This document shows positions 10,790-56,707 of a stretch of DNA of 64,000 nucleotides, one piece after another (the stretch's first letter is position 1; the number at the start of each line of letters is the position of its first letter). The translations under genes and the position numbers were made by a program. The DNA comes from Planctomycetota bacterium (GTDB lineage Bacteria; Planctomycetota; UBA8108; UBA1146), in assembly GCA_032128395.1 (NCBI GenBank), contig JAQBGV010000096.1, positions 8,376 through 72,375 on the forward strand. Direction: 5' to 3'. The notes under the pieces were generated by a model, which had not been told where the DNA came from, did not search any database, and was given only the letters and a program-made list of their open reading frames with translations.

Positions 10790-11242
10790 CTACTCTGGAT
10801 CGGGGGGAGAGACTGTAGGCGGTGGGGCTGCGGATTCGGGCGCGCTGCCGTAGACGTCGGCAGAGCCCATCACTCCGCTCTCCTCGTACTTCGAGGGGCA
10901 CTTCGTGAAGATCTTGGTTCCCTCGAAAAGTTCGGTCTTGCCGACGAAGACTCCGATCACCGCCACATCCGTGTCGACCTTGAAAATGTCGGGGCGGTGG
11001 TCATCCACCGAAGCGATGATACGCACCGAAGGGTCTTCGATGTCGCGGATCGTGAACCGCATCGGACGGACGTCGCTGTCGATCGCGTGGATCACGCCTT
11101 GAAGGCGGACGATCTTGCCCTCGTAGTCACCCATCCGGAGCGACTGGACACCGACTTCGGGGATCGCGCCTTGGAGGATCCCCATCGTCACGAGACCGAC
11201 CAGCCCGATCAGAATGAGCAGGCCGGGAATTGCGATCTTCAA
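10790..11242 (-). CDS. ccmE: heme chaperone CcmE, variant with C-x3-Y heme-binding motif
   Basis: 150 aa, N-terminal TM anchor, OB-fold-like core; FTKCPSKYEE aligns with E. coli LAKHDENYTP (His130 replaced by Cys). Confidence 0.8.
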   Translation of the reverse strand: MKIAIPGLLILIGLVGLVTMGILQGAIPEVGVQSLRMGDYEGKIVRLQGVIHAIDSDVRPMRFTIRDIEDPSVRIIASVDDHRPDIFKVDTDVAVIGVFVGKTELFEGTKIFTKCPSKYEESGVMGSADVYGSAPESAAPPPTVSPPDPE

Positions 11243-11286
11243 TTCGGCTCCCTCCGGGGTCTGGCTCCGTCGCGCGCAAGTCGTGT

Positions 11287-11340
11287 CCGACTTTCCACTA
11301 TCGGCCCGACTTCCATTATCGGCCCGACTTCCATTATCGG
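11287..11340. repeat. three tandem 18-bp direct repeats, each CCGA-N10-TCGG, in divergent ccmE/HAD promoter region
   Basis: ccgactttccactatcgg / cccgacttccattatcgg / cccgacttccattatcgg (last two identical). Confidence 0.8.
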
Positions 11341-11405
11341 ATCGTCGGCTTCTCGATCACAGTCCGATCGCGCGGATTCGGTCCCCCGTAGGTCGACAGT
11401 ATCCT

Positions 11406-12197
11406 ATGATGCTGACCGATCGGAGGGCAATCCTGCGATTTCCGGGCCTGAGCGCCCTGCTGCGCCCGGAATGCATCCAGACGCTTCGCCTCGCGGATTG
11501 GAGGGACATGGACGAACCGTTCCTCGGCCCGCTCCGGATCGTCGTCTTCGACCTCGACGGCACCCTGATCGACTCCCTTCCCGACATCGCTCACGCCGTG
11601 AACGAGGTGCGTCGTGCCCACGCTGCCAGCCCAACCCCCCTCGAGCAGATCCGCGCCGCGATCGGAGACGGGGCCCGCGTCCTCGCCGGACGGGTCTTCG
11701 GCGATTTGAGAGAGGTGGGCGAAGAGGCGATCCTCGGGGAGTTCCTCGCCGAGTACGAACGATGCAGTGTCGAGAACCTCGAGCCCTGGCGAACGGGCTC
11801 GCAGGAGCTCCTCGATCTCCTGACCGGACACGGTCTCGAACTCGCCATCCTCTCGAACAAGCCGCTAGCTCTGACCGAGCGCATCCTCGAGAACACGGAG
11901 GCGCGCTCCCAATTCGTTCTGGTGCGGGGGCCGGAGAATTCTCCGGCCGCGAAGCCGGACCCGCTCGCACTCCTCGACATCATCGCGTCGCGTGGATTCG
12001 CTCCGACCGAGGCGTGCTTCGTCGGCGATTCGATCGTCGACTTCGCGACGGGTCGTGCCGCGGGGGTCTTCACGATCGGCGTCCGGGGCGGATACCGCGC
12101 GGACGGAGAGCCGGGCCCCGACGTCTGGTGCGACGATCCCGCCGCGGTCTTCGATTGCCTCCGAGTTTCCTCCATCCGAACTGCGGAGGCCGAATGA
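11406..12197 (+). CDS. HAD-family hydrolase (phosphoglycolate phosphatase-like)
   Basis: VVFDLDGTLIDS motif I, SNK motif, C-terminal GDSxxD; ATG start inside longer ORF; stop overlaps nfo start. Confidence 0.8.
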   Translation: MMLTDRRAILRFPGLSALLRPECIQTLRLADWRDMDEPFLGPLRIVVFDLDGTLIDSLPDIAHAVNEVRRAHAASPTPLEQIRAAIGDGARVLAGRVFGDLREVGEEAILGEFLAEYERCSVENLEPWRTGSQELLDLLTGHGLELAILSNKPLALTERILENTEARSQFVLVRGPENSPAAKPDPLALLDIIASRGFAPTEACFVGDSIVDFATGRAAGVFTIGVRGGYRADGEPGPDVWCDDPAAVFDCLRVSSIRTAEAE

Positions 12198-39031: not shown

Positions 39032-41584
39032 CTACTTCCCGCCGCCAGGGGGAGGAGCGCCCCCCGTCGGATCGGGAGGAGGAGGATCGGACGGGGGCGG
39101 ATCGGTCACCCCCCCTCCCTCTGGAGTGGAGCCCCGCGCCTCGAGCTCGGCGAGCTTCGAGAGCTCCCCCTCGTCGAGCGGGTGCCGCTCCGCGAAGCGA
39201 CCGAAAGCCGCGATGAAGCCGTCGAAGTCATCGAGCGGTCCGTACCTGTTGACCGCCTCGATCACCCAAAGGACGTGGCCGCAGGCGAGAACGATCTCGG
39301 GGTGTTGTTCCGGGCCGAGGAGCTCCGCCTCTTCGTCGAGCAACTGTCCGAGTGTGGTCCAGAGCGATTCGAGGTCCCGCCGAACGAGCTGGGCAGCGAG
39401 CTTCCCCCGTTGGCCCGAGGAGAGCGCGACCGATTCGAGTGCGAGTCGAGCCGACGATCGCGGGTGGGCATCGCCGTTCGCCCCGAGAGCCCCGACCACG
39501 GCGCGCACCCCCACGGCAACCGCGTCGAGCGCTTCCGCGATCCGAGCGAGGTCCTCTTTTTCGAGGGCGGCCTCCGCGCGGATCGTCCAGTACTCGGCAT
39601 GGATCTTCTCGAAGCGGGGATAGGCCTCGGGACGCGAAGCGCGAAGGTCCGCGGGTTGACGTGCCGGAGCGAGCAACGGGTCGAATTTCGAGCACTCCAC
39701 GGCGACGCGGAGCCAAGGTCGCGGGCGATCCTCGGCATCGATCAGGAACGACTCGAGTGCTTGGAGAGTCGGATCCAGCGCGCAGAGGTCGCCGGCGCGC
39801 TCCACGATCTCAACGCCGAGATCGTCCCCCTCCGGGATCTGGAGCAGGAGGTCGACCATCGTCTCGAGCGCCTTCTCTCCTCCGATGCTCCGGAGACTGT
39901 TCAGCGCAGCGCTCTTGCGCTCGCGGGTGAGGTCTGGACCGAGGATCGCGTTGCGGAGCGGGGGTATCCCGTCGGCGCTTCCGAGACGGCCGATCCCGTT
40001 GATCGCCAGGGTCCAGAGGCTGTCGCTGCTCCCCTCCTCGGAGAGGGCCCGCCCGAACAGCTTGAGCGCGGTCTGCGCCGAGGCGTCGTCGCTCGGGACC
40101 CCGGCCTGCACGAGAACCCAGAGAGCGTTCTCCCGAGCATCGGGTCGGTTCTCGTAGATTCGTTCGAGTTGCGTGACCGTCTCGGCGCTCGCCCCGACTT
40201 GCTTCAGGCTCTGGAGGAGGTACGCGAGCGGCTTGGGGGGGACCGTGTCCCACGCATCGCCCCCGCCGGCGGGGAGGAGCGCGGCGAGGGCTCGATCGAG
40301 TGCCCTGCCGACCGGCGCCTGAAGAACTCCGGCAATCCGAACCGCGAGCTGCCCCAGGCGTGCATCGCGACTGTCGCCCGAGAAATCCGTGCCCGGCAGC
40401 TTCTCGATCAGTCTCGAGAGCAACTCGACCACTCTCGGCTCATTCTTGAACATCGCAAAGGTCCCGAGGGCGGTGAGGGCACGGACCTGCGTCCGCACCG
40501 GATCACGGTCGCGCAGTGTCGTCGCCTCGGTGTCGACCATCTCCACCAGCCGTCCGAGGAGCGGACTCAGGAGCTCCTGCTGCTGCTGGGGGGTCAGCGC
40601 CCCCTCGCCGATCGCGCCCGTGAGCCTGGGCACGAAGCGCTCGAGCTCTTGGAGTGCGCTCGTCCGAACCGATGGGGGCTGCGTCGTCTGCAGGGAGTCG
40701 AGGAGGAACCTCTGGTATCCCCCTGGAGCACCCTCGAACAGGTGGCGATTCGCCAGCTCCCACATCCGCGAGGTCCGCTCGTCGGCCCTTCGGCGCTCTC
40801 GTTCGACGATGAGGCGCAACACTGCGTCCTTCTTGTGTACATCCCACCACTCGCGCCACTCCGTCGCCGACACCAGGTCGTACCCCACGAAGGATGCCAG
40901 GGCACGCCGGATCGCGGGCTCCAGCGGGGGCGTGCTGGCGGCGAGCCGTTCGATCGCCAGATCGACGAGGCGGTTCGGCTCGAACTGCGCGAGGATCGGG
41001 AACAACCGCTCGAAGAGCGTCCCCGAGACTTCTCCACCGAGGAGCTGCGAGAGCGAATCCCGTCGTTCCCGCTTGGAAGCGATCTGCGAGAACGCGCTCT
41101 CGATCTCCACCCCGAAGTTCTCGTAGCTCGCTTCCCCGCCGAGGAGGTAGATCAGCACCCCCTCGCCCGGGCTCGGAGAGCGCATCACCGGGTCCGCCAG
41201 GATGGCTCGGGTCCGCAGCGGGTCTTCGAGGGCACGAGTGTCGAGATACTCGATGAGCAATTCGCGCGTCCACGGCGGTGCGCCGCCCCCCTGCTGGGTG
41301 GCCTGCTGCAGGAGCGTCAATCCTCGCACCCAGTCCTGCGAGTCTCCCGAGTCGAGGAAGCCCCGGACCTGATCCGAAGGCGCGACCAGATCCTGAGAGG
41401 CGTGGGCGGTGGAGAGAACGATCGAGCCGCCGAGCGGCAACATCCCCGACAGTGCCATCACCTGGAGCACCGCTCCGAAGAGGACGACACGCACGTGGAC
41501 GGTCCCGACTCGCGCGGTCCCGAGTGGCCGGAAGCGGCACACCCGGGGGTGTCGGGGATCGCGGTTCGTTCGGGTGGGTCGCAC
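39032..41584 (-). CDS. large HEAT/ARM-like helical repeat protein with Pro-rich C-terminus
   Basis: 850-aa ORF, repeated Leu/Ala-rich helical pairs, N-terminal hydrophobic segment, C-terminal PPPSDPPPPDPTGGAPPPGGG; start uncertain. Confidence 0.5.
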   Translation of the reverse strand: MRPTRTNRDPRHPRVCRFRPLGTARVGTVHVRVVLFGAVLQVMALSGMLPLGGSIVLSTAHASQDLVAPSDQVRGFLDSGDSQDWVRGLTLLQQATQQGGGAPPWTRELLIEYLDTRALEDPLRTRAILADPVMRSPSPGEGVLIYLLGGEASYENFGVEIESAFSQIASKRERRDSLSQLLGGEVSGTLFERLFPILAQFEPNRLVDLAIERLAASTPPLEPAIRRALASFVGYDLVSATEWREWWDVHKKDAVLRLIVERERRRADERTSRMWELANRHLFEGAPGGYQRFLLDSLQTTQPPSVRTSALQELERFVPRLTGAIGEGALTPQQQQELLSPLLGRLVEMVDTEATTLRDRDPVRTQVRALTALGTFAMFKNEPRVVELLSRLIEKLPGTDFSGDSRDARLGQLAVRIAGVLQAPVGRALDRALAALLPAGGGDAWDTVPPKPLAYLLQSLKQVGASAETVTQLERIYENRPDARENALWVLVQAGVPSDDASAQTALKLFGRALSEEGSSDSLWTLAINGIGRLGSADGIPPLRNAILGPDLTRERKSAALNSLRSIGGEKALETMVDLLLQIPEGDDLGVEIVERAGDLCALDPTLQALESFLIDAEDRPRPWLRVAVECSKFDPLLAPARQPADLRASRPEAYPRFEKIHAEYWTIRAEAALEKEDLARIAEALDAVAVGVRAVVGALGANGDAHPRSSARLALESVALSSGQRGKLAAQLVRRDLESLWTTLGQLLDEEAELLGPEQHPEIVLACGHVLWVIEAVNRYGPLDDFDGFIAAFGRFAERHPLDEGELSKLAELEARGSTPEGGGVTDPPPSDPPPPDPTGGAPPPGGGK

Positions 41585-41681: not shown

Positions 41682-42527
41682 TCAGAAGATCCCTGCGCTG
41701 AAGTTATCGTCTGGAGGCGGCATTTCGGACAGGGGTCCTCGCTCACGACCGGTCGGTTTTCGGGGGGCCGGGTCTCGACGGGGCGGCTCCACACCGTCCT
41801 CGATCCGCTGGTCGGCGAGAATCGGTGTGCGTTCCGGACGCGCAACGATCGGTTCCGGTTCCGGCCGGAACTGACTCGCGTCGCGGGTGTCGCGGGTGTC
41901 GCGGGTGTCGCGGGAATCGCGGGCATCTCTGGATTCGCGAGAGCCTCGGGATTTCACCGTCTCGCGGGTGTCGCGCCCTCTCCGATCCGGCTTGGCATCG
42001 GACTCCGAGGCGGCGGAAACAACGAGGCGCGAATCGGGAAGCTCGCGATCCCCGACGTCGCGATCCCCGACGTTGCGGTCCTCGACGTTGCGGTCCTCGA
42101 CGTCGCGGTCCTCAGTGTCGCGGTCCTCGAGATCGCGAGGGCAGTATCCGGGTTGTTGCGAGGCGTCCACTTCGCCGAGATACGACTCGACCACCCGAGA
42201 CTGAAGTTGCTCGCGGCACTCCGTGTTGATCGGGTGGGCGATGTCCGCGTGGAGCTTTCCTTTTCCCTCGAGCCGCTGAGATGCTTCGGGGGGGAGGGAG
42301 ACCCCGCAGTCGTTGCAGTAGTGGCTGCGGACCTGATTCTTGAAGCCGCAGCGCTGACAGCGAGTGGTCAGCTTGCGACTCGGCATCGCGACGAAGAGTC
42401 CCTTGTTTCCTTCGATGATCTTGAGGTCGCGGACGACGAACGAATCGTCGATGGTGATGCTGCAGAACGCGCGGAGTTTGTCCTGACCCCCGTCCACCAA
42501 TTTCACGCGGACTTCGGTGATCTCCAC
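41682..42527 (-). CDS. spoVG: SpoVG-family protein with inserted zinc ribbon and repetitive RD/RE-rich C-terminal extension
   Basis: VEITEVRVKLV...LRAFCSITIDDSFVVRDLKIIEGNKGLFVAMPSRK and HADIAHPINTECREQ match the SpoVG core; CQRCGF...CNDCGV inserted between them; GTG start after GGAGAGGAG RBS; tail of DRD/TRD repeats. Confidence 0.8.
   Translation of the reverse strand: MEITEVRVKLVDGGQDKLRAFCSITIDDSFVVRDLKIIEGNKGLFVAMPSRKLTTRCQRCGFKNQVRSHYCNDCGVSLPPEASQRLEGKGKLHADIAHPINTECREQLQSRVVESYLGEVDASQQPGYCPRDLEDRDTEDRDVEDRNVEDRNVGDRDVGDRELPDSRLVVSAASESDAKPDRRGRDTRETVKSRGSRESRDARDSRDTRDTRDTRDASQFRPEPEPIVARPERTPILADQRIEDGVEPPRRDPAPRKPTGRERGPLSEMPPPDDNFSAGIF
41876..41927 (-). repeat. tandem 9-bp repeats (TCGCGGGTG x ~5) encoding TRD repeats in spoVG tail
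   Basis: Direct inspection of the sequence. Confidence 0.8.
42046..42137 (-). repeat. tandem 15-bp repeats (CGGTCCTCGACGTTG-like x ~6) encoding DR[DN]V[EG] pentapeptide repeats in spoVG tail
   Basis: Direct inspection of the sequence. Confidence 0.8.
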
Positions 42528-42607
42528 GGAGTCTCCTCTCCAGTCACAGTGTGCATCTCTCGGGTGTCGGGGAGCTCCCGCTCTCGATCGCGGTCCCCTC
42601 AAAGGGT

Positions 42608-43609
42608 CTAACGGAAGAGTGCAGGATGGGGATGACCGCGGACCACGACAACTGCGACTCCGGTCTCGGCGGAATACGGTGCCAGCGGTCCGTCCGGGGA
42701 AAGAAGTGCGGCCTCGAGACGACGCGCACCCGCGCGATTCTGTTCGGACCAGAAAAATGCCGACCCACTCCCCGTCATGATCCAACCGTTCGATGATCCG
42801 CGATCCGACGAGACGAGATCAGAATGCACGCGGTGCTCTCGGTTGAAGTCGCGCAGGCGTCGGGCGAGTTCTGAGAGGCGCGAATCCGTCGCCAGAACCG
42901 GGTTCTCGAGGCGGTTGAAAAGTCCCCGTCGCCACCCCCCTGCGTTTTCAAAAGTCCTTGTGGGGAAACTAATTGGGCCACTTGGTGAAGTCAAGGGGAA
43001 AGAGACTCGAGCATACGCCGACGCGGTCGACGAGACGATGCTCGGAAGCACCACGACGAACCCCGGACGCTCCCCACCGAACAGAACTCCATCGAAGGCT
43101 TCGAGAATCTCTCCTCGCCCTCGGGCGATCGCTGCGGCGTGTGGTCCGAGGAAGAACGGGACATCGGAACCGACCCCGGCGGCGACCGCAAATCCGGCGC
43201 TGGCTCCGTCGGGATCGGGTGCAACTCGCTCGACCAGCGCGAGGAGGCCGGCGGCGTTTCCGCTCCCTCCCCCGAGCCCGGCTCCGGGAGGGATGCGTTT
43301 GCGCAAATGGAGCCGCAAGGGGGGAACCACCCTGCGTTGCCGAGCGGCGGCGAGCGCGATGAGCACCAAGTTCGTCTGATCGACCGGCGCCATCTCTCCC
43401 TCGACCCGCAACTCGTCGCTCGCCCCGGCGGGGAGAACCTCCGCGACCAGCAAGTCTCCCCAATCGAGAGCGAGCAGCAGCGAGAAGATATCGTGATATC
43501 CATCGGTGCGACGACGCTCGACTTCGAGAAAGAGATTCAGCTTCGCGGGAGTGGTCACTGCGAACCGATTCTCCCCGAGGCGTCGGACGGGGAGGAGTGG
43601 CGCGGTCAC
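42608..43609 (-). CDS. ispE: 4-(cytidine 5'-diphospho)-2-C-methyl-D-erythritol kinase
   Basis: KLNLFLEV, GHMP-kinase PPGAGLGGGSGNAA motif. Confidence 0.85.
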   Translation of the reverse strand: MTAPLLPVRRLGENRFAVTTPAKLNLFLEVERRRTDGYHDIFSLLLALDWGDLLVAEVLPAGASDELRVEGEMAPVDQTNLVLIALAAARQRRVVPPLRLHLRKRIPPGAGLGGGSGNAAGLLALVERVAPDPDGASAGFAVAAGVGSDVPFFLGPHAAAIARGRGEILEAFDGVLFGGERPGFVVVLPSIVSSTASAYARVSFPLTSPSGPISFPTRTFENAGGWRRGLFNRLENPVLATDSRLSELARRLRDFNREHRVHSDLVSSDRGSSNGWIMTGSGSAFFWSEQNRAGARRLEAALLSPDGPLAPYSAETGVAVVVVRGHPHPALFR

Positions 43610-54380: not shown

Positions 54381-55601
54381 CTAGGGCCACAGCGTCGAGA
54401 TCTCCGAGCCGGGGTAGTACCTCGCGAGGATCGATCGATATCGGGCCTGCTGCTCCGCGTAGCCCTTGGCGCCGACCTGGCAGAGCCCGACCCCGTGTCC
54501 CCACCCCCGGCCGAAGAACGCGAACTCGTCCCCCTTGCGCTCGGCGAAGAACGAAGTCGAACGGAGGGTGATCCCCGCCGTGCTGCAGGCCCGGCGGAAC
54601 CGGTCCGCGTCGACCTCGAAGCTGCCGCGCTCGTGGACGACCCGAACGAACGCGCAGTGTCCCCCCGGGGACGGATCGACCGGCTCGAGGGCGAGGAGCT
54701 CGCCGAGGACGATGCGATGGCGTCGACAGATCGATCCGAGTGCTTCTCGGAGCTTCGCCTCCGCGAGTCGCGCGTCCCACCTGAAGTACTTGCTCGAGGA
54801 ACATCCGCCGCACGAGACCGATGAGAGCGGGGCGATCGGGTCGCCGCCGAACCAGTCCTCGACCCCGCGCGTCGCTCCGCCGCAGGTCGAGTGATAGAAG
54901 CTCTCGAAGACCTTGCCCTCGTAGAGAAGCACCTGGCCGTGGGTCTGGTCGACCGCCTCGACCACCCGAGGATGAGGCGCGCCCCCGCCGAGGTAGACCT
55001 GCGAGCGATCGTCCGAGTGGACGTGGATTCGAGTGTCGGATGGGCGGGTCAGGATGTGGAAGAGCGCGTACGTGCGGGCGGCGACCGCCTGGGCCCCGAG
55101 CGCGTGCCGAGGATAGGAGTCGGCGGGCATCTCCCCCGGAACGACCCCGAGCAGATACCGCTCGAGCGGAAGTCGATTCACCAGTCTCCAGGGGCTCCCT
55201 TCCTCGGGGACGAGGACCTCGAGCCACCCTTCGTAGAATCCATCCCCGACCCGGGTCGAATGGACCTCCGCGCGGAACCGGAACGGGATCGCCAGTCCGA
55301 AGTCGAGTCCTCCGATGGTCGCGCCCCTCTCCGAGAGCTCGAGACGGTGGGTCCCTCCCGGGAGCTCTTTCCGCCCCCCCGGCCACTCGATGCGGAGCCC
55401 TCCTTGGCCGACCACGATCTCGCGCAGCAGCTCGGAACCCGATGCGATCTGCACTCCGATGATCGGACCGTCGTTCGCGTCGAGGGGTTGCAGTGCGCCG
55501 AGCACCGCGATGAGCGTGATCGCCCCCCTGAATCGGGTCGAGATCCGGCGGATCGACATCGGGCGGATCGAGATTCCGCGGACGCTCCGACTCATCCGCA
55601 C
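54381..55601 (-). CDS. SpoIID/LytB domain-containing protein
   Basis: GRGWGHGVGLCQVGA and YHSTCGG motifs of the SpoIID/LytB domain; signal/TM at N-terminus; start uncertain. Confidence 0.72.
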   Translation of the reverse strand: MRMSRSVRGISIRPMSIRRISTRFRGAITLIAVLGALQPLDANDGPIIGVQIASGSELLREIVVGQGGLRIEWPGGRKELPGGTHRLELSERGATIGGLDFGLAIPFRFRAEVHSTRVGDGFYEGWLEVLVPEEGSPWRLVNRLPLERYLLGVVPGEMPADSYPRHALGAQAVAARTYALFHILTRPSDTRIHVHSDDRSQVYLGGGAPHPRVVEAVDQTHGQVLLYEGKVFESFYHSTCGGATRGVEDWFGGDPIAPLSSVSCGGCSSSKYFRWDARLAEAKLREALGSICRRHRIVLGELLALEPVDPSPGGHCAFVRVVHERGSFEVDADRFRRACSTAGITLRSTSFFAERKGDEFAFFGRGWGHGVGLCQVGAKGYAEQQARYRSILARYYPGSEISTLWP

Positions 55602-56707
55602 GCTCCTTCTCCGAAGAGATCCGGGGTTTCGGCAGCATTTCCCGCTCGAGAAATGGGGCTTGCCGGCGCTGCGTTGGTCGGCGCTGCGTTGGTCGGCGCT
55701 GGGATCTCGAGACCGGGGATCTCCTCCGCCCGCGGACCGAGGACTCGACCCCTCGGGGTCTTCGCGAGGTACCCCTGGCGGATCAAGTACGGCTCGTAGA
55801 CGTCCTCGATCGTCCGCTCTTCTTCGCCGACGGTGACGGAGATCGTCTTGACCCCTACCGGCTCCCCGCGCGATCGGCTGATCACTTCGAGGATCCGGCG
55901 GTCGAGCGCGTCGAGGCCGAGGGAGTCGACTCCGAGTCGACTGAGCGCGGACTCCGCCGCGGCACCATCGATCTTCGGTGAACCACCGACCTCGGCAAAG
56001 TCTCTCACGCGGCGGAGAAAACGGTTGGCAATCCGGGGAGTCCCGCGGCTGCGGCAGGCGAGCGTGCGCGCCCCTTCCTCCGTCACCTCGACCCCGAGGA
56101 TCCCGGCACTGCGGGAGATGATCTGCAGCATCTCTTCGTCCCCGTACGGCTCGAGCTTCTCCTGGATCCCGAAGCGGGCGCGGAAGGGAGCGGTCAGGTT
56201 TCCCTCGCGAGTGGTGGCGGCGACGAGGGTGAAGCGCGGGAGGTCGATCTGGATCGATCGGGCGTTCGGCCCCTGATCGATCAGAATGTCGATGCGAAAG
56301 TCCTCCATCGCAGAATAGAGGTACTCCTCGACCACGCGACCGAGCCGATGCACTTCGTCGATGAAGAGCACATCCCCGACCTCGAGCTCGGTCAGGATCC
56401 CGACCAGGTCCTTCGCCTTCTCGAGCACCGGTCCACTCGTCGCTCGGAATCCGGTCCCCATCTCCGCCGAGACGAGATGGGCGAGCGTCGTCTTGCCGAG
56501 ACCCGGCATCCCGGAGAAGAGCAGATGGTCGAGGGGCTCGCCGCGGCGCCGCGCAGCGTCGATGTAGACGCGGAGATTCTCTGTGATTGCCGACTGGCCG
56601 ATGAACTCGTCGAGACGTCTAGGGCGGATCGAGGCCTCGCGGTCCCGCTCTTCGCCCCCGACGGCTCGGGGATCCGCGGGGCGGGCGTCGGGGGCGGTCT
56701 GGGTCAA
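55592..56707 (-). CDS. ruvB: Holliday junction branch migration DNA helicase RuvB, with repetitive C-terminal extension
   Basis: Walker A GMPGLGKTTLA, Walker B LFIDEVHRL, RuvB winged-helix C-domain; extra ~45 aa tail with APTNAAPTNAAP encoded by tandem 15-bp repeat. Confidence 0.9.
   Translation of the reverse strand: MTQTAPDARPADPRAVGGEERDREASIRPRRLDEFIGQSAITENLRVYIDAARRRGEPLDHLLFSGMPGLGKTTLAHLVSAEMGTGFRATSGPVLEKAKDLVGILTELEVGDVLFIDEVHRLGRVVEEYLYSAMEDFRIDILIDQGPNARSIQIDLPRFTLVAATTREGNLTAPFRARFGIQEKLEPYGDEEMLQIISRSAGILGVEVTEEGARTLACRSRGTPRIANRFLRRVRDFAEVGGSPKIDGAAAESALSRLGVDSLGLDALDRRILEVISRSRGEPVGVKTISVTVGEEERTIEDVYEPYLIRQGYLAKTPRGRVLGPRAEEIPGLEIPAPTNAAPTNAAPASPISRAGNAAETPDLFGEGACG

Follow-up and report, generated by a model that had tools for sequence, protein, structure and literature searches.

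In the SpoVG protein of S. aureus, the K50-R51 doublet is essential for DNA binding, while a separate stretch, SDMRQE, determines DNA sequence specificity (Jutras et al., 2013; PMC3688583). In the Planctomycetes, an insert of 32–36 aa in SpoVG has been described as a signature of the group (Gupta, Bhandari and Naushad, 2012; PMC3444138, Fig. A3); where that paper presents the insert, it is handled only as a phylogenetic marker and termed exclusive to the phylum. Experiments on a planctomycete SpoVG were absent from the searchable literature, and in the literature found the insert is not named a zinc finger.

The spoVG gene considered here occupies positions 41682–42527 of the window (the whole stretch of DNA analysed, 64,000 nt) and, like all of the features described below, is on the reverse strand. 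The ORF translates to 281 aa followed by a TGA stop, from a GTG start. A Shine-Dalgarno-like sequence, GGAGAGGAG (42533–42541), can be read 5 nt 5' of the GTG, and because of its placement the GTG at 42527 is favored over a TTG at 42785, which would also give an overlap with ispE. The latter, encoding a GHMP kinase (42608–43609), is on the same strand 80 nt upstream, so that the adjacency of the two genes pointed out in the first-pass annotation holds. It is also general: in an HMM search, each of the 70 eligible Planctomycetota loci had an upstream, same-strand ispE homologue, and at 69 the distance was within 500 nt; gene contexts called with Pfam agree with this linkage. The two genes are probably co-transcribed. 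Promoter and terminator scans around spoVG gave nothing exceeding the shuffled background, and an Rfam scan of the window found no RNA family and no 16S. The exact 281-aa sequence is on record (P0121) as a one-member cluster, found on two contigs. Scans for close relatives returned none above 61% identity in metagenomes and, among the matches listed, none above 63% in genomes. The nearest named homologues of the SpoVG and RuvB proteins are labelled Planctomycetota, and the window is syntenic with two other loci (L001 and L158).

That this is a SpoVG homologue, as first proposed, is confirmed by a match to the Pfam SpoVG family (PF04026) of 97.5 bits (E = 5e-28, cut-off 29.6). Residues 1–116 span positions 1–80 of the 82 in the profile, which implies an insertion of about 35 aa. 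The match to the NCBIfam equivalog for “septation regulator SpoVG” (NF009749) is broken into two stretches by the insert and reaches 90.5 bits, under its cut-off of 108, so the appropriate label is “SpoVG family protein” rather than functional equivalog of the Bacillus protein. In Pfam and PDB alignments, the N-terminal beta-sheet part (aa 1–53; 42369–42527) ends in AMPS-R51-K52, and the C-terminal part (aa 94–128; 42144–42248) contains ADIAHPIN, the specificity helix TECREQ (aa 102–107), and a conserved QPGY. R51-K52 aligns with K50-R51 of S. aureus, and TECREQ with SDMRQE. The AlphaFold2 model of the core has block-mean pLDDT values of 82–96 (86–92 for aa 1–50, 82 for aa 51–60, and 87–96 for the helix at 102–123). 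In Foldseek comparisons it matches the SpoVG crystal structures 2ia9, 2i9z, and 2i9x, to which the sequence also matches directly, with target-normalised TM-scores of 0.65–0.82 (E 2e-6 to 5e-5). In the predicted structure the SpoVG fold is thus intact, with a C-terminal alpha-helix after a beta-sheet.

Between the two parts of the core is the insertion itself, delimited by alignment and pLDDT to approximately aa 54–93 (42249–42368) and made up of a putative zinc finger and a low-confidence linker (aa 76–93); pLDDT falls to 48–55 across aa 81–100. The AMPS-to-DIAHP spacing is 44 aa here, vs. 9 aa in all 33 of the insert-free SpoVGs that could be parsed. The finger core (aa 57–75; 42303–42359), defined from alignments, Foldseek, and Pfam, has the sequence CQRCGFKNQVRSHYCNDCG and the pattern C-x2-C-x3-N-x6-C-x2-C-G. 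The CxxC-x10-CxxC zinc ribbon that the first-pass annotation saw as splitting the SpoVG core is as described, running from C57 to C74 (C57-QR-C60-GFKNQVRSHY-C71-ND-C74-GV). C57, C60, K63, N64, C71, C74, and G75 are invariant in two alignments, of 36 (A1) and 50 (A2) homologues, and conserved residues on the surface of the finger include the basic or polar K63, R67, and N72. The consensus spacing of RanBP2-type fingers is C-x2-C-x3-N-x6-C-x2-C, which is matched here by C57, C60, N64, C71, and C74. Foldseek superimposes the predicted finger on RanBP2/NZF zinc fingers, with rmsd values of 0.5–0.9 Å over 24–27 residues for most such matches and probabilities up to 0.99; these include Nup153, Trabid, and ZRANB2, the ssRNA-bound structure 3g9y among them.

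In profile searches, all 36 members of alignment A1 match the Pfam family DZR, and 16 of the 36 match Zn_ribbon_RanBP (E ≤ 0.1, best 1e-5). The window protein itself has no Zn_ribbon_RanBP (PF00641) match at E ≤ 1, and its match to DZR (PF12773), at 18.8 bits, is below the cut-off of 27.3 and extends over profile positions 1–23 of 45, corresponding to one ribbon, not two. The tryptophan of the W-x-C motif, two residues before the first Cys, is absent (T55-R56-C57 in the window protein, [TS]-x-[RH]-C in homologues). Overall, the insert has the pattern and the predicted fold (a zinc ribbon with two knuckles) of a RanBP2-type zinc finger, and its four cysteines are expected to bind zinc.

The first-pass annotation took the protein for an unusual, elaborated variant, and this did not survive comparison with its relatives. 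Every one of the 120 best database homologues has the insert motif in the same place, and among the matches listed it is in every readable SpoVG gene of 80 Planctomycetota genome loci, which cover Pirellulales, Planctomycetales, Gemmatales, Isosphaerales, Phycisphaerae, Sedimentisphaerales, and Brocadiia. It was also met in Candidatus Omnitrophica. That the insertion would turn out to be a common, annotated feature of a SpoVG subfamily had been named at the outset as grounds against this view; it is indeed common, and published as a signature indel. Database models do not list it as a subfamily of its own. Of the checks suggested with that annotation, comparison shows that orthologues carry the insertion, at the identical position, and structure prediction yields a SpoVG core with a RanBP2/NZF-like finger and a disordered tail. 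The window protein is the standard Planctomycetota form of SpoVG, with an insert already known as a phylum marker. What is new is the RanBP2-like pattern and predicted fold of the finger, its position between DNA-binding elements, and a conserved tip at the C-terminus, considered below.

We regard as probable, with some reserve, an overall reading in which a standard Planctomycetota SpoVG carries a C4 finger beside its binding pocket, followed by a slippage-prone linker and a docking tip. The protein would be a small nucleic-acid-binding global regulator, as expected for SpoVG, with R51-K52 and the helix at aa 102–107 retained. By alignment, the insert is located exactly between the two elements shown by experiment to bind DNA in other SpoVGs, and a single C4 RanBP2/zinc-ribbon finger would take the place of the hairpin turn between them; since it replaces that turn, it should project beside the binding pocket. 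There it may enlarge or re-tune the nucleic-acid-binding surface, most likely for ssRNA or ssDNA. Some residues of the finger would be consistent with binding of nucleic acid by the finger itself. N72 presumably sits in the slot of N24 in the ZRANB2 sequence. The conserved R67 aligns with R19 of the RNA-binding RBM10 finger, the first of two guanine-binding arginines there (PMC6384913).

The finger might instead be a protein-binding module in the style of NZF-ubiquitin or Nup153-Ran recognition, recruiting a partner or oligomerising without any contact to nucleic acid. Many RanBP2/NZF fingers are protein binders, and the best Foldseek matches are to Trabid NZF1 and to the Ran-GDP-bound fingers of Nup153 and RanBP2. 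RNA-binding fingers of the ZRANB2 type have a stacking Trp and a second Arg; here Q65 (most homologues have His) and S68 stand in their places. Matches also include the RNA-bound ZRANB2 finger (3g9y) and that of RBM10, however, and both the placement of the insert directly between two experimentally defined DNA-binding elements and the conserved surface formed by K63, R67, and N72 point back toward nucleic acid. We therefore see a purely protein-binding finger as a tentative possibility.

Beyond the core, pLDDT and composition define a disordered, charged tail of 153 aa (aa 129–281; 41685–42143), with block-mean pLDDT values of 44–61 in AlphaFold2 models. The protein is one of the four longest of 200, in a family with a median total length of 190 aa. 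The tail is more than its repeats, because its last 12 residues (aa 270–281; 41685–41720), PPPDDNFSAGIF, form a tip conserved among homologues. The tip is found in homologues P0001–P0005 and P0007–P0009, and its general pattern, F-[GS]-x-G-[ILV]-[FL], is common in Planctomycetia; among the 120 best homologues, 54 have the ending [FL]-[GSA]-x-G-[ILVM]-[FLI]. In 955 kb of related loci, ORFs with tip-like ends were counted as 34 SpoVG vs. 0 others. The tip is absent from most Phycisphaerae and from Brocadiia and Omnitrophota, so it is dispensable for core function. The end of the RuvB encoded in the window (...DLFGEGACG) was considered as a shared docking motif and rejected as a chance resemblance: the 120 best RuvB homologues end in GLF, QxxLF, or QGSLDLE, with F[GSA]xG in one of the 120.

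With hydrophobic residues at its end and acidic ones before them, the tip (DDNFSAGIF) could be a tethered docking peptide, either for a partner or for the protein's own core. A related but distinct proposal is that the acidic tail and tip act solely in cis, as an autoinhibitory mimic of nucleic acid that folds back on the basic pocket, in the manner of SSB or T7 gp2.5, or as a C-terminal degron governing turnover of the regulator, with no partner recruited. The hydrophobic end of the tip, its position at the extreme C-terminus behind acidic residues, and the strongly acidic character of most homologue tails (median net charge -6, lowest -59) all fit such a role. So does the restriction of the tip to SpoVG in the sampled loci, which means that there is no sign of a docking site common to several clients. 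The tail of the window protein, on the other hand, is nearly balanced in charge (26% acidic, 21% basic, net -8), which would make it a poor DNA mimic, and in AlphaFold2 monomer models of the full window protein and of a short-tailed homologue (P0033) the tip has pLDDT values of about 50–62 (about 60 in the homologue), with no confident back-docking on the core. Action in cis alone is accordingly considered unlikely.

A bolder extension of the docking idea, which we rate as rather more doubtful and offer as speculation, is that SpoVG of the Planctomycetia and of the window's lineage is a three-part hub, in which pocket and finger together read single-stranded RNA and the tip (D-[DN]-F-G-x-G-[IL]-[FL]), on its flexible linker, recruits a specific partner, much as the tail of SSB or of the ribosomal P-stalk does. 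That partner could be an RNase or a translation factor, or else a protein of division or of the envelope. Many of these bacteria are reported to lack FtsZ. If true, this would be a design of post-transcriptional regulator not yet described in bacteria.

Part of the tail is built from tandem repeats. Tandem Repeats Finder identifies a 15-bp array of 5.9 copies (42043–42130; 87% matches, score 113) encoding [EG]DR[DN][VT] pentapeptides; a second array, with a 9-bp unit in 4.9 copies (41880–41923; 94% matches, score 74), encodes [AST]RD tripeptides. The translated units are EDRDT/EDRDV/EDRNV/EDRNV/GDRDV/GDREL and ARD/SRD/TRD/TRD/TRD, and there is an Arg-rich stretch in addition. The repeat-bearing extension of about 150 aa with an Arg-rich region seen by the first-pass annotation is therefore real, but its description of the DNA repeats as perfect needs correcting to near-perfect: just three units of the 9-bp array are identical, and two pairs of the 15-bp array. 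The 15-bp array is missing from the closest syntenic orthologue (P0002, locus L001), which retains the tip, and the 9-bp array from the closest orthologues generally. In sister lineages with cores 92–100% identical there are between one and five EEEYEExx units, and P0003 and P0004 differ by a 3-aa indel. Only the repeat-built part of the tail is peculiar to the lineage of the window.

The linker after the helix would, under the reading preferred here, evolve rapidly by replication slippage, with length and repeat content specific to each lineage and probably of little import except for charge and reach. In the relatives, the variation in repeat number has the look of simple slippage within a disordered linker, and for the family as a whole the repeats may plausibly give rise to variation in length, as earlier suggested. 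It is a further step to propose that length variation through the 15-bp and 9-bp repeats has a function, in the style of a contingency locus, tuning RNA or DNA binding by the tail between strains. Six arrays in the 64-kb window score at least 50, and two of them are inside the 846-bp spoVG gene; this concentration, and the differing repeat numbers on nearly identical cores, could be seen as signs of such a device. Against this, the repeats of different lineages have unrelated sequences (one has acidic EEEYEE, the window DRDVE/TRD), and the closest syntenic orthologue lacks repeats while keeping the tip, the pattern expected of neutral slippage; nor was a second allele of the locus found in the databases searched. 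Slippage could not switch spoVG on or off, since each unit length is a multiple of 3 nt. We find a selected length-variation device improbable. Least credible of all is that the tail is an untranslated annotation artefact, a chance ORF run-on or the result of a frameshift or misassembly within the repeats, of a kind that the GC content of 61–70% and the frequent long spurious ORFs around the locus might produce: orthologues with otherwise different tails conserve the last 12 residues in the same frame, and the identical 281-aa product occurs on two contigs.

For the window, then, the import is small: the gene is a spoVG of the type usual in its phylum, and its repeats are an expansion, specific to the lineage, within a disordered linker. 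The gain for the family is modest, in that an indel used as a taxonomic marker is a predicted zinc finger, common to the Omnitrophota as well. The combination in Planctomycetia of this finger with a conserved C-terminal peptide lends itself to concrete, cheap experiments on planctomycete SpoVG.

Compared with canonical SpoVG proteins (PF04026; those of B. subtilis, S. aureus, L. monocytogenes, and B. burgdorferi, with structures 2ia9, 2i9z, and 2i9x), the window protein has the same predicted fold, with approximately 31–32% identity when aligned by structure, and shares the AMPS-[KR][KR] doublet, the DIAHPI-helix, an acidic C-terminal extension, and the link to ispE. It differs in having a finger of about 35 aa and a 44-aa spacer where they have a hairpin turn and a 9-aa spacer, and a tail of 153 aa where theirs are about 10–30 aa. 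The insert agrees in position and length class (32–36 aa) with the Planctomycetes signature insert as presented by Gupta et al. (PMC3444138); there it is a marker exclusive to the phylum, whereas here it appears as a RanBP2-like finger found in Candidatus Omnitrophica too. The RanBP2/NZF fingers (PF00641), such as ZRANB2 ZnF2 (3g9y), the RBM10 ZnF, and the Nup153 ZnFs, have the same spacing, invariant Asn, and predicted fold and, with the prokaryotic DZR/zinc_ribbon modules (PF12773, PF13240), are the nearest known counterparts of this finger. They are free-standing or in tandem, whereas this one lies inside a loop of another domain. Tethered C-terminal tips are known from SSB (DDDIPF), T7 gp2.5, the ribosomal P-stalk (...DDDMGFGLFD), and FtsZ, with its C-terminal peptide. 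We presume the likeness of the window protein to these to be one of architecture alone, a nucleic-acid-binding or structural core followed by a variable, disordered, often acidic linker and a short, conserved acidic-hydrophobic end; its motif, D-[DN]-F-[GS]-x-G-[IL]-[FL], differs from those of all four.

The spoVG ORF (41682–42527, minus strand) encodes 281 aa when translated from a GTG start, with GGAGAGGAG read in the sequence 5 nt upstream of it; a longer, TTG-started reading was rejected because it overlaps ispE and has no conserved support. The first-pass annotation described the product as a SpoVG carrying a zinc ribbon and a tail rich in repeats, and this identification is correct: the Pfam SpoVG profile matches with E = 5e-28, a CxxC-x10-CxxC motif is present, and there are tandem arrays. 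Residues 1–116 match profile positions 1–80 of 82, so the domain must contain about 35 extra residues; in alignments to crystallized SpoVGs the match stops at residue 53 and restarts at 94. The extra segment holds C57-x2-C60-x10-C71-x2-C74, and beyond it come the SpoVG helix, a conserved QPGY, and a 153-aa tail. The score against the NCBIfam SpoVG equivalog is 90.5 bits, below the cut-off of 108. An AlphaFold2 model from an alignment of 36 homologs has block-mean pLDDT values of 82–96 over residues 1–80 and 101–130, and a Foldseek search of the PDB with it puts SpoVG crystal structures at the top (TM-score 0.65–0.82, normalized to the target).

The insertion had been considered an unusual elaboration, but it is a common feature of the subfamily, and the window gene is an ordinary planctomycete SpoVG. 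A search of 5.8 billion proteins gave at least 8,000 candidates, of which the best 120 were examined (56–81% identity, core mostly fully covered). All 120 have C-x2-C-x10-C-x2-C, at residue 56–57 in 111 and in the rest shifted by start-site extensions or an additional CxxC; where a name is given, it is either “stage V sporulation protein G” or, for Planctomycetota entries, “SpoVG family protein”. Related genomes agree: with one genome scanned for each GTDB species, at least 599 SpoVG loci turned up, and among the best 80 (Pirellulales, Planctomycetales, Gemmataceae, Isosphaeraceae, Phycisphaerae, Sedimentisphaerales, Brocadiaceae, and Scalindua) the cysteine motif is in every readable spoVG. 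L059 and L062, two short contigs assigned in binning to “uncultured Alcaligenaceae”, also carry planctomycete-type SpoVG, at 59% identity, probably through bin contamination. No Pfam or NCBIfam model sets SpoVGs with this insert apart as a subfamily, and no paper tying SpoVG to a zinc ribbon in the context of the insert was found in the literature searched. The insert, of 32–36 aa, was put forward as a molecular marker of the phylum Planctomycetes in 2012 (Gupta et al., 2012; PMC3444138).

The exclusivity claimed there is contradicted by a second SpoVG clade, whose named members are Candidatus Omnitrophica. The same finger, C-x2-C-x3-N-x6-C-x2-C, is found in 119 of 120 of its proteins and in metagenome loci (e.g., L107:3001–3417), so the insert is not exclusive to Planctomycetes. 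These proteins have AFAT in place of AFCS, HRDIAHPIT, a median length of 139 aa, and no FGxG tip. Across metagenome loci, the AMPS–DIAHP spacers form two well-separated groups: those of 41–51 aa contain the cysteines, and those of 9 aa lack them. Two further cysteines lie outside the finger in planctomycete-type SpoVGs, C22 (AFCS), invariant in alignments of 36 and 50 homologs, and C104 (ECRE), at least 90% conserved in both; in the Omnitrophota type the first site reads AFAT, and the second is Cys or Phe.

Structure prediction suggests what the insert is. C57, C60, K63, N64, C71, C74, and G75 are invariant in both alignments, R67 is at least 90% conserved in both, and N72 is so in the larger one. 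RanBP2-type zinc fingers have this spacing, C-x2-C-x3-N-x6-C-x2-C. AlphaFold2 models two short strands (54–56 and 63–65) in the insert, and below the SpoVG structures the Foldseek search of the PDB lists many RanBP2/NZF fingers that match the insert alone (Nup153, RanBP2, Trabid NZF1, HOIP NZF1, and the ssRNA-bound ZRANB2 finger 3g9y), most superposing with rmsd 0.5–0.9 Å over 24–27 residues. Pfam DZR matches all of the 36 aligned homologs (best E 5e-8) and Zn_ribbon_RanBP matches 16 (best E 1e-5); the window protein itself has only a sub-threshold DZR match. The signature indel is, as modeled, a RanBP2-like zinc finger. A PDB sequence search with the insert gives an alignment to the RNA-binding RBM10 finger, in which N72 occupies the Asn slot of CNxC, which we equate with ZRANB2 N24, and the conserved R67 falls on R19, the first of the two guanine-bonding arginines of ZRANB2-type fingers. 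In such fingers two arginines hydrogen-bond guanines, and a stacking aromatic has also been assigned (PMC6384913). Unlike them, the window SpoVG lacks the second arginine (S68) and the aromatic (Q65; His in most homologs).

DNA binding by the SpoVGs of S. aureus and B. burgdorferi requires a basic doublet, K50-R51 in S. aureus, and six helix residues, SDMRQE, determine sequence preference (Jutras et al., 2013; PMC3688583). Their counterparts in alignments to crystallized SpoVGs are R51-K52 and T102–Q107. The finger starts two residues past the doublet and the insert stops a few residues short of the helix; judged from these alignments, the finger is located between the two DNA-binding determinants of SpoVG. 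Mainly because of this position, a putative role in nucleic acid recognition is favored for it, and a purely protein-binding role less so.

Upstream of spoVG and in the same orientation lies ispE, with 80 nt between the two. The Firmicute-like linkage of these genes, remarked on in the first-pass annotation, is confirmed and extends to the whole phylum sample. When the 80 genome loci were searched with an HMM made from six ispE genes, all 70 of the eligible Planctomycetota loci had a homolog upstream in the same orientation, within 500 nt in 69 and typically with a gap of 20–50 nt. Independent Pfam-called contexts agree. For comparison, the Bacillus order is ispE-purR-yabJ-spoVG. Several contexts also have folK and panC beyond ispE on the upstream side, and the contig of one of the best homologs, P0002, has the gene order of the window: eno, folK, panC, ispE, spoVG, an 865-aa protein, and asparaginase II. 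The window protein directly downstream of spoVG (39032–41584, minus strand; 850 aa) is hydrophobic at its N-terminus and rich in Pro at its C-terminus. A counterpart occupies the same position in two syntenic loci, L001, which carries P0002 (865 aa, 42% identity, no Pfam match on record), and L158 (829 aa, faint HEAT_2 match), with Asparaginase_II next in both and in the window. A scan around spoVG found no sigma-70-like promoter, and the frequency of terminator-like sites there did not exceed that in shuffled sequence.

The tail has block-mean pLDDT values of 44–61 throughout, and is thus predicted to be disordered. Tandem Repeats Finder reports six arrays scoring at least 50 in the 64-kb window, two of them in the spoVG tail on the minus strand: a 15-bp unit encoding [EG]DR[DN][VT] (5.9 copies, 87% matches) and a 9-bp unit encoding [AST]RD (4.9 copies, 94% matches). 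Arrays and units are as first described, but near-perfect rather than perfect. Elsewhere in the window, an 18-bp tandem repeat (11287–11340; 2.9 copies, 94% matches) falls close to the beginning of a possible plus-strand ORF (11214–12197), where it would encode LSARLP units. Among 200 homologs, with a median total length of 190 aa, the window protein is one of the four longest; an acidic tail is the usual case (net charge: median −6, minimum −59), and that of the window is unusually Arg-rich (21% basic vs. a median of 8%). The closest relatives among the matches listed have cores 75–81% identical and tails of about 95–110 aa; DRDVE and TRD repeats are in none of these, including the syntenic P0002, which points to a recent, lineage-specific expansion. 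Other lineages have unrelated tail repeats of their own, and copy number does vary between near-identical proteins there: cores 92–100% identical carry one to five EEEYEExx units, P0003 and P0004, identical in the core, have tails one 3-aa unit apart, and P0020 and P0021, again with the same core, differ in their tails. Some sequences compared may end early at contig ends. No second allele of the window gene was found in the databases searched. These comparisons support slippage as a general habit of the SpoVG tail, and the repeats of the window protein look like linker slippage. A designed switch is unsupported, since every unit preserves the frame and different lineages have unit sequences with no relation to each other. 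Tails may hold more than one short linear motif: three very long-tailed SpoVGs of 270–308 aa (L041:4001–4927, L025:3808–4686, and L091) share an internal YDxLIxxLKRDAAxRR, absent from the window protein, and a mid-tail PxxPH is common in Pirellulales-type tails.

Planctomycetia SpoVG tails carry a conserved C-terminal tip, not noticed in the first pass. In the window it is PPPDDNFSAGIF (41685–41720, minus strand), common to the closest relatives. Among the best homologs and the 80 genome loci, D-[DN]-F-[GS]-x-G-[ILV]-[FL] closes an otherwise hypervariable tail; a looser form, (D/E/N)-F-[GS]-x-G-[ILV]-[FL] with 0–2 trailing residues, ends 54 of the best 120 of at least 8,000 matches, several of those without it stopping at contig ends. 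Across 955 kb of related loci, the motif closes 34 stop-to-stop ORFs, all 34 of them SpoVG, and no other protein in these sampled loci was found to end in it; internal occurrences number only 20 in 824,505 residues. Of the loci labeled with Planctomycetia taxa, nearly all have the tip (about 30 of 35); the count is 1 of 13 for Phycisphaerae, Phycisphaerales, and Sedimentisphaerales together, 0 of 3 for Brocadiia, and 0 of 120 for the Omnitrophota-type proteins. Short-tailed Phycisphaerae SpoVGs end in DEPDDE[VI]PE[VI][VI]S. RuvB in the same window (55592–56707, minus strand), with a perfect 15-bp tandem repeat in its tail (55664–55701; APTNA, 2.5 copies) and the end ...PDLFGEGACG, was rejected as a sharer of the tip, since many of its 60 closest homologs end in GLF(E/D), QxxLF, or QGSLDLE, which we take to resemble sliding-clamp-binding motifs.

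The insert has been in the literature since 2012; worth keeping are its recognition as a likely RanBP2-like finger, its placement, its Omnitrophota occurrence, and the tail tip, and no experimental study of the planctomycete finger or of the latter three was found in the literature searched. The tip could act in autoinhibition or as a degron, but a tethered docking peptide is proposed here. In the AlphaFold2 model of a short-tailed homolog the tip has pLDDT of about 60 vs. 44 for the linker, too weak for a docking claim, and the proposal is drawn from analogy: the tails of SSB, T7 gp2.5, and the ribosomal P-stalk, and the FtsZ C-terminal peptide, are built in this way, with a disordered, variable linker leading to a short acidic-hydrophobic peptide.
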